16,822 nt of DNA from the IMG/VR virus record IMGVR_UViG_2585427743_000008; one strand, 5' to 3'. The notes below the pieces were generated by a model, which searched no databases, was not told the DNA's origin, and saw only the letters and a program-made list of their open reading frames with translations. Of this stretch, positions 10,159 through 13,849 are shown one piece after another. The DNA is from a virus (Duplodnaviria; Heunggongvirae; Uroviricota; Caudoviricetes). Both the position numbers and the translations under genes were made by a program. Numbering within the stretch: position 1 is the stretch's first letter; each line of letters begins with the position of its first letter.

Positions 10159-11298
10159 ATGTGTAATTTTTTTTTATTAGTTTTTAAAGAATCATTGCAA
10201 AATATCCAAGAGAACAAAAGCATGATGTATTTGTACTCATTTGTATTGATTCTTTCGTTTACAGGGGTAATTATAACTGACTCATTAATAAATAGCGTGG
10301 CAAAAACTGCTCAGTCAGAACTAAGAAGCGAGGGGGAGTCAACAATTACCATTAGCTTTCATATGTCTAAATCGCGAGACCTGATAGCTAACATTTTGTC
10401 CCAAATGCAGATTAAAGACGTTTTTTTCAGTAAAAATGTTTTTTTTCAGGTAGGGGGGAATCCTTTTGCCAGTCAGCTAAAAAAAATAACAGGAATTGAA
10501 AGAAAAGATGTGTTGTTTAATGATATTCATTCAGACTTCTGGGTAAAAGGGAAAAATTCCGTCGTTATACGAAGTGGTGATAGTGATTTATCAAAGAAAG
10601 CTTATATTTATATTGATGGTCTTCCATTTAAAGTGAACGGTGTTACAAGTAAAAAGAAAACAATTTTTCTGGATAGTTTAGGTTTAAGCTCTCTACAAAA
10701 AGAAGGTGAAATTTTTATTCCATTAGAAACAGCGACCAGATTATCACTTAACAACGAAATAGATAGTGCAAGACTTATTCTTAAAAAAGAAGTTGATGAT
10801 GTTAATATAATGAAACTCAATGAGTTATTAAAAGCAAATGGTATTGATAACTATAATATTATTAGTTTTATCGATGCAAAAAAAGCAGTTGATAATGTAT
10901 TAAATAGATTTTCATTGTTGACAAATATTATGTATTTTTTTTTGACAGTTACATCTGTCATTACAGCAAAATCTATGAGTAAAAAGATGTTCCAATATCG
11001 GAGTACAGAATTTGCATTAAAAATACTCAATGGTATTAATGGAAAAATCGTTTGCATCGTTATTTTTGTCGAAAGTCTCATTGTCGCATTAATTTCAATA
11101 TCTGTATCGTTATTGATGTCATTTGTTATTTTAGTTATAGTATCAAGTGCAATTTCAGTTGACCTTGCAATGCGATATAATGCTTTAATGACTTCTGTCT
11201 GTGTAATAGCGTTCTTTTTATGTGTATATAATACTAAGCTAAGTTATTCTCTTTTTGCAAAAGAGTTGTCAACTTTAATTAAAGAAAGGTTTTCATGA
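10159..11298 (+). CDS. ABC-transporter permease, FtsX/MacB/LolC-like (AatP-like)
   Basis: One N-terminal TM (MMYLYSFVLILSFTGVIIT), a ~220-aa hydrophilic domain, then three C-terminal TM helices: the FtsX-fold topology. Start uncertain (10159 or the MM at 10222); stop overlaps the next gene by 4 nt. Confidence 0.75.
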   Translation: MCNFFLLVFKESLQNIQENKSMMYLYSFVLILSFTGVIITDSLINSVAKTAQSELRSEGESTITISFHMSKSRDLIANILSQMQIKDVFFSKNVFFQVGGNPFASQLKKITGIERKDVLFNDIHSDFWVKGKNSVVIRSGDSDLSKKAYIYIDGLPFKVNGVTSKKKTIFLDSLGLSSLQKEGEIFIPLETATRLSLNNEIDSARLILKKEVDDVNIMKLNELLKANGIDNYNIISFIDAKKAVDNVLNRFSLLTNIMYFFLTVTSVITAKSMSKKMFQYRSTEFALKILNGINGKIVCIVIFVESLIVALISISVSLLMSFVILVIVSSAISVDLAMRYNALMTSVCVIAFFLCVYNTKLSYSLFAKELSTLIKERFS

Positions 11299-12500
11299 AG
11301 TCTATATTCATATTGTTGACTGTAATTTTTCTTGAGGCCCCATCTGCGATTGCAAGTGTTTGTTCTCTAGACTCATATTTTAATAAATCCATGGAATATA
11401 GATCTTACCAAATACAATCAGAACAAAATAAAATAGAACGACAAGATAACAACTACTCTTTCTTGCCTGATTTTTCTGTTTCTACAGGGCAATCAGCATA
11501 TAATAAATCAGGTTTTAAATCTCCTGAGTATAGCGATGCAGGTTTTTATCTCTCTATGCCTATTTATACAGGAGGTCGGTATTTTTTGAATAAAAATAAA
11601 CTATCATTATCAGATGAGTTACAATTAATTTCTCTTGAGAAATATAGGATTGATTATCTTCTATCTATTTATGAAAAAATCCTTAGGAGAAATGAAATAA
11701 ACACACTACTAAAAGAATATAATCTCAAGCAAAAAGATGCAGAAATAGAAAATAAGCATCTACAGTATCTCTATGAGCAGGGTAGAATATCAGCATTTGA
11801 ATTAAATCTTAAGGAAAATATGGTAGAAAATAACCAGAAAAACATAAAAATACTGAGAAGTGAATTGCAATTACTGGAGTGGAGTCTTAGTAAAGAACAT
11901 CATATTCCTCAACATATGTTTGGACTTATTGATTCGAATGCAATAAAAGCATGTAAGAGAAACAATATTAGTTCATTAATAAAAAAAGAAAACATTGCTG
12001 AATTTGCAGAGGCCGGTATTAATTATGAATTGGAAAAGTCTACAGATTATCCATCGCTCTCACTATCCTTAAGTTTAAGGCCTAAAAAAGGAGGGGCTAT
12101 CAGGGATGTGTCAATAAAACACGGTAATTATTCGACATCTATTAATTTAAATATTCCGTTAAGTGGGTTGCTGAAACTAAACACAAAAAAAGAAAAGTAT
12201 TCACTAAACGTTAATTCTGCAAAGCTAAAAAGTGACAAGAAAAATATGGAGTTAAAAAACACAAAACAAAGTATTTTAAATAAATTAGATAATGCCAGTG
12301 ATGAAATTTTATATTTAAGAAAGCAGTTTTTCCTTAATAAGGATAAAATAAACTATCTCAAAGAGCAGTTAAGGAAAAATAACGACAACATTGTTTTGTA
12401 TTATAATGAAATTAACTCTCTAGATGAAATAAAAAGAGAATTAATAAAAAAGGAAAATGAAATTGAACTATATAAAATGCATGTGTTTTTTATTGGTTAG
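11295..12500 (+). CDS. TolC-like outer membrane factor (AatA-like)
   Basis: Signal peptide (MKSIFILLTVIFLEAPSAIA), long coiled-coil-prone K/E/N-rich regions, and an OMF-like motif (LSMPIYTGGRYF, compare TolC-family P-x-F-x-GG). 401 aa; translationally coupled to the flanking genes. Confidence 0.65.
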   Translation: MKSIFILLTVIFLEAPSAIASVCSLDSYFNKSMEYRSYQIQSEQNKIERQDNNYSFLPDFSVSTGQSAYNKSGFKSPEYSDAGFYLSMPIYTGGRYFLNKNKLSLSDELQLISLEKYRIDYLLSIYEKILRRNEINTLLKEYNLKQKDAEIENKHLQYLYEQGRISAFELNLKENMVENNQKNIKILRSELQLLEWSLSKEHHIPQHMFGLIDSNAIKACKRNNISSLIKKENIAEFAEAGINYELEKSTDYPSLSLSLSLRPKKGGAIRDVSIKHGNYSTSINLNIPLSGLLKLNTKKEKYSLNVNSAKLKSDKKNMELKNTKQSILNKLDNASDEILYLRKQFFLNKDKINYLKEQLRKNNDNIVLYYNEINSLDEIKRELIKKENEIELYKMHVFFIG

Positions 12501-13230
12501 TTTATTGCCAAACATTGCTAAATCCAATTCTCTATCATGGTATGGTATCCTAAGAGGAGATACCATTATTGATTATAAAAGTCCAGTGAATGGTATTGTG
12601 GATTCTCTAAATTGTACTCCAGGTACAGATAAGAATAATTCAGAAATATTCAAAATTATAAGTGTTGATGGTGTTTCAAAAAAAGAAATATTAGTCCTGA
12701 AGAGAGATAGAGCCCGAAGTGAATATAAGAAATATAAAAATGAATATGTGAATGCAAATAATGCGTTTAAAGAAGGATTGGTTGCAAAAAATGAACTTAG
12801 CGACATTGGCAATAAAATGAAAGATGCCATTATAAATTTAAAGGAGGTTGAGAGTGAAATTGAAACATTAAATTATATAAATAAACTTAGCAATCCGTAT
12901 GTAAAAGGGAGATTTGTCTGTCAGGATGTGTTTGTTTCTCAAGGTAGTTATGTTAACTCCGGTGATCTTCTTATGAAAATAGAAATGATAAACAAATATC
13001 GCCTTGAGATAAAATATGACCCCGTTACAACAAATCTAAAGAATAGCTCTATCAGATATCGTTCATTAGTAAATAATTCAACAGGAAATGCAAAACTTAT
13101 AGCAACTAAAAATCTTACAGATAATAGCAGCATGGGGGGGCTAAAGTCGGCTATTCTTGAACTAGAAAATAATGGTGGATTATCCCCTGAACTTCTGGAT
13201 ACAGCATTTGAGATAACACTACATGATTAA
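12457..13230 (+). CDS. periplasmic adaptor / membrane-fusion-like protein (AatB-like)
   Basis: N-terminal hydrophobic anchor, then lipoyl-like half-motifs (SPVNGIVDS...; ...GRFVCQDVFVSQGSYVNSGDLLMKI) flanking a coiled-coil segment. Short (257 aa) for an MFP. Overlaps the preceding gene by 44 nt (or 20 nt if it starts at MCFLLVS, 12481). Confidence 0.55.
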   Translation: MKLNYIKCMCFLLVSLLPNIAKSNSLSWYGILRGDTIIDYKSPVNGIVDSLNCTPGTDKNNSEIFKIISVDGVSKKEILVLKRDRARSEYKKYKNEYVNANNAFKEGLVAKNELSDIGNKMKDAIINLKEVESEIETLNYINKLSNPYVKGRFVCQDVFVSQGSYVNSGDLLMKIEMINKYRLEIKYDPVTTNLKNSSIRYRSLVNNSTGNAKLIATKNLTDNSSMGGLKSAILELENNGGLSPELLDTAFEITLHD

Positions 13231-13849
13231 ATTAAATATAAAGAAGAAATCATTCTCTGGTCGAATCATTATTTCCGATTTAAGTATTGATATACAAAAG
13301 AACGAGTTTGTTGTTATAACAGGAGCTTCCGGAGCTGGCAAAAGTACTTTGCTAAATATAATTGGTCTTATAGATACATCTTATTATGGTAGATATTTTT
13401 TTAACGGTATTGATGTGTCTAAAATAACCAATAAAAAACAGTTATATTTAAGAGGGGAGTATTTTGGTTATATTTTTCAGGACTCTCTTATAAACAACAG
13501 GCAAACAATTCTAAGAAATTTATTATCGGTTATAGAGTTAAAAAAACAAAATGAGTATAGCCATGCGGTTTTAAATCAACTAAAAAAGGTAGGGTTGTAT
13601 AATATATCCCCAGAGGCATCTGCATCCTTACTATCTGGTGGTGAAAAGCAACGCGTCGCACTAGCCAGAGCATTAATAAAAAAGCCCCAAATATTATTAG
13701 CCGATGAGCCAACAGCAAGTCTGGATAATGATAATAAAGCGAAAGTTATGGATGTAATGCTTGATTATCATAAAGGCGGTGGAACAGTTGTTATGATAAC
13801 ACATGATACAAATCTAATTACAAAAGATATGAAGGTTATATCGCTTTGA
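13223..13849 (+). CDS. stand-alone ABC transporter ATP-binding protein (AatC-like)
   Basis: Walker A GASGAGKST, ABC signature LSGGEKQRVALARAL, Walker B ILLADEPT, H-loop ITHD; 208 aa; 8-nt overlap with the preceding gene. Confidence 0.9.
   Translation: MIKLNIKKKSFSGRIIISDLSIDIQKNEFVVITGASGAGKSTLLNIIGLIDTSYYGRYFFNGIDVSKITNKKQLYLRGEYFGYIFQDSLINNRQTILRNLLSVIELKKQNEYSHAVLNQLKKVGLYNISPEASASLLSGGEKQRVALARALIKKPQILLADEPTASLDNDNKAKVMDVMLDYHKGGGTVVMITHDTNLITKDMKVISL

Follow-up and report, generated by a model that had tools for sequence, protein, structure and literature searches.

Probable Aat/Cex lipoprotein secretion genes (aatPABC) with their linked substrate and acyltransferase genes in a 16,822-nucleotide virus record

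Genes of the locus and their identity

We analyzed IMG/VR virus record IMGVR_UViG_2585427743_000008 (Duplodnaviria; Heunggongvirae; Uroviricota; Caudoviricetes), a stretch of 16,822 nucleotides that we call the window throughout, in which an initial annotation, made from the letters and their reading frames, had singled out a four-gene exporter operon. The operon consists of genes for a permease, an outer-membrane channel, a periplasmic adaptor and an ATP-binding cassette (ABC) ATPase; the gene for a small secreted protein lies 282 nt upstream of it, and a gene for a membrane N-acyltransferase converges on it from the other side (Table 1). We are highly confident that the four genes are aatP-aatA-aatB-aatC (cexPABC), the transport module of the Aat/Cex system, and that they lie on a virulence-plasmid island of enterotoxigenic Escherichia coli (ETEC). 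The Aat/Cex system is a virulence factor of ETEC, enteroaggregative E. coli (EAEC) and Citrobacter rodentium, and aatA is the target of the classic CVD432 diagnostic probe for EAEC. No other bacterial machine is known to combine N-acylation of a protein on glycine with its delivery to the cell surface.

Table 1. Features of the aat/cex locus and of the DNA around it (positions in the window)
Feature	Position	Strand	Description
aatP (cexP)	10159-11298	+	379 aa; type VII ABC permease, MacB/LolCE/FtsX-fold
aatA (cexA)	11295-12500	+	401 aa; TolC-family outer-membrane channel with signal peptide
aatB (cexB)	12457-13230	+	257 aa; short periplasmic adaptor
aatC (cexC)	13223-13849	+	208 aa; separate ABC ATPase
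cexE (CexE-gamma allele)	9526-9876	+	116 aa; secreted substrate
aatD (cexD)	14890-16134	-	414 aa; Lnt-like membrane N-acyltransferase; convergent with aatC
Conserved cexE upstream block	9424-9494	+	AAAAGTT..TTTTTTTATCT.TTACAAT.TTAAAAA..TGTATCTTG; shared with the H10407-type locus
Hairpin	9883-9912	+	13 bp, G+C-rich, T-rich tail, 7 nt after the cexE stop; from a terminator scan
Candidate Rns site	16191-16203	-	CATTAAATTATCT; exact copy of the sequence defined upstream of cexD in H10407
lpxM/msbB-type pseudogene	13982-14478	+	lipid A acyltransferase, frameshifted and N-terminally truncated
IS21 IstB fragment	14722-14871	-	49 aa; between aatC and aatD
IS66 element	552-2603	-	tnpA, tnpB and a truncated tnpC
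Phage-borne general porin	5205-6347	+	380 aa, intact
Chimeric reading frame	8703-9371	-	222 aa; IS3-type helix-turn-helix fused to IS66 DDE C-terminus

The coordinates of the four genes and the overlaps reported in the initial annotation proved exact. The aatP and aatA frames share 4 nt (ATGA), aatA and aatB overlap by 44 nt (or by 20 nt if aatB starts at the internal ATG at 12481), and aatB and aatC overlap by 8 nt. All six open reading frames (cexE, aatPABC and aatD) are full length with respect to their homologues, without frameshifts or internal stops. When the 29%-G+C stretch was shuffled (n = 500), the longest runs without a stop had a mean of 68 codons and a maximum of 145; because the four aatPABC frames are far longer, we consider them real genes. 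The order P-A-B-C is the same in the window and in the ETEC reference and EAEC loci, the corresponding junctions overlapping by 4/38/8 nt in the H10407-type ETEC locus and by 4/101/8 nt in EAEC 55989, and aatPABC forms a single unit in all 826 systems surveyed earlier (Icke 2021, PMC7943197). Given these overlapping stop and start codons, translation of the four exporter genes is probably coupled.

Two of the start codons deserve comment. For aatB, we prefer the start at 12457 over that at 12481, because it is preceded by a Shine-Dalgarno-like AAGGA, of which 12481 has none, and because it yields the N-terminus MK-LxYIKC that is kept across homologues and that a start at 12481 would leave out. 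For aatP, we likewise prefer 10159 over the start used in RefSeq (10222, 63 nt downstream), since residues E18 and N19, which precede M22, hardly vary across the family and are part of the N-terminal helix of the structural model; the RefSeq start removes this conserved helix. Public annotation of this DNA is uneven in other respects as well: in GenBank CP091405, aatD is called as its C-terminal 257 codons only (~60% of its length), and RefSeq labels cexE, aatP, aatB and aatD as "hypothetical protein". In composition, the aat region (G+C ~29%) differs from the left 9 kb of the window (49%), and within the locus cexE stands apart at 43.6%, versus 28-32% for aatP, aatA, aatB, aatC and aatD; this contrast between substrate and machinery may reflect only the Gly/Ser/Val-rich CexE protein, or else a different history.

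The assignment to the Aat/Cex system is carried by nucleotide identity, protein similarity and published tables alike. Positions 9400 to 16300 are 100% identical to large virulence plasmids of ETEC, among them NZ_CP025848, NZ_CP023347 and CP091405, all but one of the 104 matching places in E. coli are on plasmids, and the sequence of the aat locus is identical across many independent ETEC isolates. AatP, AatA, AatB and AatC are 70%, 66%, 76% and 77% identical to the H10407-type proteins and 36%, 26%, 30% and 50% identical to the annotated proteins of EAEC 55989 (BLASTP, essentially full length, E <= 4e-44 in both comparisons), while AatD shows 75% identity to H10407-type AatD/CexD and 34% to the annotated EAEC "dispersin export-associated protein AatD". 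Taken together, the six proteins of the window are 57-77% identical to the ETEC H10407-type set, compared with 26-50% for EAEC AatPABCD. The RefSeq accessions found on this DNA (WP_071594470, WP_001399279, WP_021018664, WP_000593827 and WP_000115575) and the same plasmids are among the complete Aat systems tabulated in the Icke 2021 supplement (PMC7943197), where WP_001399279.1 is AatA, and the product of cexE is the "CexE-gamma (ETEC)" of the Rivas 2020 supplement (PMC7344145). Because both the accessions and the plasmids match the tables of Icke 2021, we equate the locus with the published Aat (Cex) system.

This system is already published (2003-2021), and the window adds no new biology to the work on it (Nishi 2003; Icke 2021, eLife, PMC7943197; Belmont-Monroy 2020, PMC7478709; Rivas 2020, PMC7344145; Rivas 2026, PMC13622617); a literature search found no solved structure of an Aat transporter. 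The analysis illustrates that an Aat system is recognizable from raw sequence alone, and its practical value is in correcting the annotation of this poorly annotated allele and in drawing attention to the fact that the curated hidden Markov models (HMMs) of Pfam FtsX, MacB_PCD, HlyD and Lnt/CN_hydrolase miss these divergent, AT-rich members. In addition, tblastn found a second place for CexE on plasmids that carry this exact locus (NZ_CP025921, NZ_CP035842, NC_022333 and others) and two to three places for AatD on several ETEC plasmids, and some strains may thus possess additional Aat/CexE-type sets, or what remains of one.

Components of the exporter, its substrate and the acyltransferase

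The permease of the initial annotation was one of FtsX fold, with one transmembrane helix (TM), a large periplasmic domain and three further TMs. A hydropathy scan and an AlphaFold2 (AF2) model both returned this topology for AatP, namely TM1, a periplasmic domain of ~180 residues, and TM2-4. In the model (predicted local distance difference test score, pLDDT, 76.9), helices span residues 20-59, 237-290, 295-332 and 340-367; the domain in between is of mixed alpha/beta type. The best Foldseek matches of this model were MacB (E = 2.7e-16, TMq 0.62-0.65), Spr0695 (E = 9e-15) and LolE (E = 2.5e-13, TMq 0.63-0.64), followed by LolC, HrtB, YbbP, BceB and FtsX, all of which are type VII ABC proteins; no HlyB-type exporter was among the top fold matches. 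Structure prediction, which the initial annotation had suggested as a check on the permease, thus gave a type VII ABC fold of the MacB/LolE/LolC type, in agreement with its proposal. The separate 208-residue ATPase that it had described is likewise borne out: AatC is a polypeptide of its own, with Walker A at residues 34-41, the signature at 137-141, Walker B at 157-163, and Q-loop, D-loop and H-loop also present. It matches Pfam ABC_tran at E = 1.2e-29, and its best NCBIfam matches are the lactococcin-972-type ABC, FtsE, LolD, DarD, DevA and MacB families. A phmmer search of AatC against PDB sequences did not discriminate further, as nucleotide-binding domains (NBDs) of the ABCB1 type scored equal to those of the LolD/MacB type.

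The TolC-like channel and the adaptor of the initial annotation were recovered as well, by a Pfam domain match and by fold, respectively. AatA matches Pfam OEP in two stretches (E = 2.5e-13, 50.7 bits against a cut-off of 22), and its N-terminus, MKSIFILLTVIFLEAPSAIA/S, resembles a signal peptide. As phmmer found no matches for it among PDB sequences, and as its score for TIGR01844 in NCBIfam (21 bits) is far below the cut-off of 225, we regard AatA as a divergent outer-membrane factor (OMF). The AF2 model of AatB (pLDDT 85.7) has two hairpin helices, at residues 72-105 and 111-144, flanked by beta domains, and the protein is built from an N-terminal anchor or signal, a lipoyl domain, the alpha-hairpin and a beta-barrel. 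Foldseek matched this model to TMexC, AcrA, MacA, MexA and ZneB (E between 1e-11 and 3e-14, TMq up to 0.74). The best fit was to an AcrA core fragment that lacks the membrane-proximal (MP) domain (2f1m, TMt 0.76-0.79), and the model has no extra C-terminal domain, which suggests, as far as a predicted structure allows, that AatB lacks the MP domain. Among distant AatB relatives (P0062-P0066), the N-terminal hydrophobic segment closes with a lipobox-like ...(I/V)T(S/A)C, while AatB of the window and its close relatives have no cysteine at that place (...NIAKSNS); some lineages may have a lipoprotein as their adaptor, and in the lineage of the window the adaptor may be soluble or signal-anchored.

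The HMM searches proposed along with the initial annotation gave a divided result. OEP scored above its cut-off, as given above, whereas MacB_PCD (PF12704; E = 0.07, 13.8 bits against a cut-off of 27) for AatP and Biotin_lipoyl_2 (E = 0.005) for AatB stayed below theirs, and FtsX (PF02687) was not reported for AatP at all; RND_mfp was also sub-threshold for AatB (E = 0.002). Because OEP and ABC_tran were the only families to pass the Pfam and NCBIfam cut-offs, we relied on family alignments, structure prediction and fold searches for the remaining assignments. Both the AatP and the AatB family proved small, with 49 relatives of AatP and 23 of AatB collected for this purpose; nearly every one comes from E. 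coli, Yersinia, Citrobacter or Salmonella. Pfam FtsX was matched at E <= 0.01 by 22 of 27 members of the AatP family (best 2e-9) and MacB_PCD by 7, and HlyD_3 was matched by 8 of 16 members of the AatB family. When searched against the PDB, the profile of the AatP family detected MacB (E = 4.8e-4), in an alignment that begins in the periplasmic domain and extends to TM4, and left LolC and LolE undetected at E <= 1.

The genes on either side of the operon encode a substrate and a modifying enzyme. The CexE-gamma product carries a Sec signal peptide ending in ...SALA/GGAWQ, so that the mature protein starts with G20-G21; its cysteines are at positions 32 and 53 only, with none near the cleavage site and no lipobox. 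It is 57.5% identical to an annotated "protein CexE" and matches PDB entry 9HHO, "Protein CexE", at E = 2.5e-31. In H10407, CexE is exported by Sec, cleaved before Gly20 and N-palmitoylated on this residue by AatD, a homologue of Lnt; both G20 and G21 are needed for acylation, CexE is secreted only when acylated, and, in these close homologues, aatPABCD is required for its secretion (Icke 2021, PMC7943197). AatD of H10407 needs E217, K278, E286 and C325, as alanine substitutions abolished acylation (PMC7943197), and all four residues are invariant at these positions in an alignment of the window, ETEC and EAEC proteins. C325 aligns to C387 of K-12 Lnt in an hhalign comparison that is itself weak (E = 0.015, probability 2.9%). 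The NCBIfam Lnt model scored 25.5 bits (E = 6.8e-6) against a cut-off of 132.9, and a three-sequence AatD profile searched against the PDB gave no match to Lnt, only a spurious one to dCMP hydroxymethylase (E = 0.024). The detached position of aatD is a recognized arrangement, seen in 25% of systems (Icke 2021, PMC7943197), and a detached aatD is functional in H10407 (Rivas 2026, PMC13622617). That the exporter handles a lipidated periplasmic substrate and delivers it across the outer membrane, as initially proposed for the operon by itself, is indeed the published model (PMC7943197), and the genes for the substrate and its acyltransferase flank the operon.

Transcription, proposed mechanism and genomic setting

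In the initial annotation, the four exporter genes had been placed on one transcript. Their contiguous plus-strand arrangement stands, but, by analogy with H10407, the unit probably comprises five genes, cexE-aatPABC, and would start at ~9430, at an Rns-activated cexE promoter, instead of at 10159. We place the start there because cexPABC expression in H10407 relies on the cexE promoter rather than on the stretch between cexE and cexP. In that strain, expression of CexC requires both Rns and the cexE promoter, the cexE-cexP intergenic region is without an Rns-dependent promoter, and the transcript covers five genes; cexD is monocistronic and has an Rns site of its own (Rivas 2026, PMC13622617). 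The block directly upstream of cexE in the window is shared with the H10407-type locus and the DNA further upstream is unrelated insertion sequence (IS) DNA, and, as judged from this conservation, the block is probably the Rns-dependent cexE promoter region that also drives aatPABC. Upstream of aatD, CATTAAATTATCT lies 57-69 nt from the ATG, within a block conserved with the reference locus; in H10407, a CATTA to GTACC mutation in this sequence (oligo 2294) led to loss of Rns binding and activation (PMC13622617). There is no gene for Rns, an AraC-family regulator like AggR and RegA, within the window. A sigma-70 promoter scan was uninformative in DNA this AT-rich (34 sites, compared with 36.6 in shuffles), and we assigned no internal promoter. 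The hairpin behind cexE is strong (-21 kcal/mol, z = -6.5), and in the H10407-type locus this position is taken by an equally stable hairpin that differs in sequence (-20.7 kcal/mol, z = -4.3). Termination at this hairpin is probably partial, which would yield more substrate than exporter.

Taken together, these observations fit a model in which CexE would leave the cytoplasm through Sec and lose its signal peptide to signal peptidase I, with cleavage before Gly20, after which AatD would N-acylate Gly20 in the periplasm and so leave CexE tethered to the inner membrane. A type VII ABC transporter, AatP2-AatC2, would then extract the acylated protein, with ATP hydrolysis in the cytoplasm transmitted through the periplasmic domain in the manner of MacB and LolCDE; both the extraction step and the homodimeric stoichiometry are inferred. 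The AatB adaptor and the TolC-like AatA would conduct CexE across the outer membrane, and CexE would end as a coat protein held in the outer leaflet. The parts of this model have counterparts in the published account, in which AatPC resembles LolCDE and MacB, AatB is an adaptor and AatA is TolC-like (Icke 2021, PMC7943197).

Several points weigh against this interpretation of the locus. The proteins of the gamma-type allele diverge by 23-43% in sequence from those on which experiments were done in H10407, and the function ascribed to the allele would be one by analogy. AatP of the window scores below the Pfam FtsX and MacB_PCD thresholds, AatB reaches no adaptor HMM threshold, and, judged by sequence alone, the link between AatD and Lnt appears weak, considering the sub-cut-off NCBIfam score, the weak hhalign alignment and the missing PDB match. 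Mature CexE-gamma begins with GGAWQ and not with a pentapeptide rich in Gly and Ser, which has been described as the usual form. Moreover, the extraction and duct steps remain proposals even in the prototype system, and a hairpin resembling a strong terminator fits poorly with obligatory read-through unless termination is partial. It is conceivable, though we think it unlikely, that the gamma-type system is functionally distinct from the H10407 prototype, be it through the GGAWQ N-terminus, through a coupling of the MP-less AatB to the periplasmic domain of AatP that is unlike that of MacA to MacB, or through the hairpin acting as a regulated attenuator of the substrate:exporter ratio; if true, any such difference would be a refinement of a known system and not a new kind.

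Other explanations of the operon were considered next to the Aat/Cex assignment. With MacB as the top structural and profile match of AatP, and MacA among the top matches of AatB, the operon could be thought of as a MacAB-TolC-like efflux pump for a small molecule or a non-lipidated peptide (for example a heat-stable enterotoxin or an antimicrobial), unrelated to CexE. Such an idea has some appeal on an ETEC plasmid, considering that MacAB-TolC exports the heat-stable (ST) enterotoxin from the periplasm, according to work cited in a passage of PMC7943197. We nevertheless consider it highly unlikely, as the linkage to cexE and aatD is kept both here and in hundreds of genomes, CexE secretion requires homologues that are 66-77% identical to these proteins (PMC7943197), the ATPase is separate, unlike in MacB, and the operon has an OMF of its own. 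Even less credible is a classical type I secretion system (T1SS) of the HlyB/HlyD/TolC kind, taking an unfolded substrate directly from the cytoplasm by means of a C-terminal signal: AatP folds like MacB, with four TMs, a large periplasmic domain and its NBD on another polypeptide, unlike the fused 6-TM architecture of HlyB, and CexE has an N-terminal Sec signal peptide, its secretion being Sec-dependent in H10407 (PMC7943197). The presence of an adaptor and a TolC-family OMF is what the locus shares with such systems; the exporter was historically described as ABC/T1SS-like (Nishi 2003, as related by a citing paper), and Icke 2021 propose to keep Aat as a sub-class of T1SS (PMC7943197).

A further concern is whether the locus still works, since it could be what is left of an Aat island that has lost its function and is decaying among insertion sequences. 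It does lie amid IS3, IS21 and IS66 fragments with an lpxM pseudogene between aatC and aatD, its aatD is detached and inverted relative to EAEC aatPABCD, and at least one related plasmid copy (L003) is disrupted. However, the six reading frames are full length with intact catalytic and ATPase motifs, the sequence is identical across many independent ETEC isolates, and the detached aatD is both common and functional in H10407 (PMC7943197, PMC13622617), so that decay seems very improbable to us. 

The aat island is bounded by IS fragments. The lpxM/msbB-type pseudogene between aatC and aatD matches Pfam Lip_A_acyltrans at E = 5.6e-15 over positions 14101-14328, and together with the neighboring istB fragment it is a scar of the rearrangement that detached and inverted aatD with respect to the EAEC layout. 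The window as a whole is a mosaic, its matches separating into 2657-8672 and 8671-16822; in the left part, an IS66 copy precedes a DLP12-like lambdoid late region of 6 kb. This region is 100% identical to the chromosomes of ETEC 120899, 103605, 204446, ETEC-2265 and 504237, and the aat segment is 99.7-100% identical to plasmids of those same five strains. The DLP12-like region encodes Rha, Rz, lysozyme, a P21-type holin, a porin, the Q antiterminator, RusA, YbcO and a YbcN-like protein; the porin gene (Pfam Porin_1, E = 1e-152) is on the opposite strand within the late region, at the nmpC position of DLP12, and its product is called "porin OmpC" by RefSeq in the matching chromosomes. The sharp junction at 8671/8672 was in no complete genome or plasmid searched and adjoins a C-terminal remnant of IS66 tnpC, and no single record was found to hold the whole window (best coverage <=64%). 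The junction is either a real IS66-mediated fusion, by capture or cointegration, or an assembly join. In the IS66 element at the left, tnpC stops after ~311 residues (DDE profile positions 1-122 of 284), and this element and the chimeric reading frame next to the junction are typical IS debris around ETEC virulence islands.

Comparison with known secretion systems

The closest known relatives of the locus are the Aat/Cex systems of EAEC 042 and ETEC H10407, made up of AatPABCD and the substrate Aap/CexE. They share with it the P-A-B-C order and the 4-nt P/A and 8-nt B/C overlaps, and all components are full-length homologues; likewise shared are a linked signal-peptide substrate with an N-terminal glycine, a linked AatD with the E-K-E-C residues, and the Rns-site sequence upstream of aatD. 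The window differs from the prototype in being a CexE-gamma-type allelic variant, in which the mature substrate begins with GGAWQ instead of GGGNS. In EAEC, aatD is contiguous with the operon, whereas in the window it is convergent and lies 1,040 bp beyond aatC, with the lpxM and istB fragments between.

Of the systems outside this family, MacAB-TolC, an efflux pump and exporter of enterotoxin STII, has in common with Aat a type VII ABC permease with a periplasmic domain (MacB being the best PDB match), an adaptor of the MacA/AcrA fold, a TolC-family exit, a periplasmic substrate and, probably, mechanotransmission by a homodimer. It differs in that the NBD is fused to the permease in MacB, while AatC is a separate protein of 208 residues; AatB is ~110 residues shorter and apparently without the MP domain; and the Aat operon encodes its own OMF and has a substrate that is acylated by a dedicated acyltransferase. 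Aat is thus not MacAB-TolC proper. The Lol pathway (LolCDE together with Lnt) shares the permease fold, a separate LolD-like ATPase, an N-acylated client in the inner membrane and an acyltransferase, related to Lnt, with the same catalytic residues. Here, the differences are that Aat has one permease gene, which predicts a homodimer, against the LolC/LolE heterodimer, and an adaptor and OMF instead of the LolA and LolB chaperones. Moreover, the Aat client is mono-acylated on glycine, with neither lipobox nor cysteine, and its destination is the outer leaflet and cell surface, versus the inner leaflet of the outer membrane. With a classical T1SS (HlyB-HlyD-TolC), Aat shares a three-part assembly that spans the envelope, with an adaptor, a TolC-family channel and an ABC ATPase, but its ABC transporter is of the 4-TM MacB type and not of the 6-TM type, and CexE is Sec-dependent and periplasmic, with an N-terminal signal peptide in place of a C-terminal secretion signal.

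Since the profile search detects MacB and not LolC or LolE, we consider MacB the closer solved relative, the fold scores of MacB and LolE being about equal, and MacAB-TolC resembles Aat in structure no less than LolCDE does. The initial annotation had characterized the architecture as Lol-like rather than type I secretion; it was right that this is not a classical T1SS, but drew the dichotomy too sharply, as the published description is of a composite, and as MacAB-TolC already unites a MacB-type permease with an adaptor and TolC. Aat is not a Lol system, although it probably acts like one at the extraction step.

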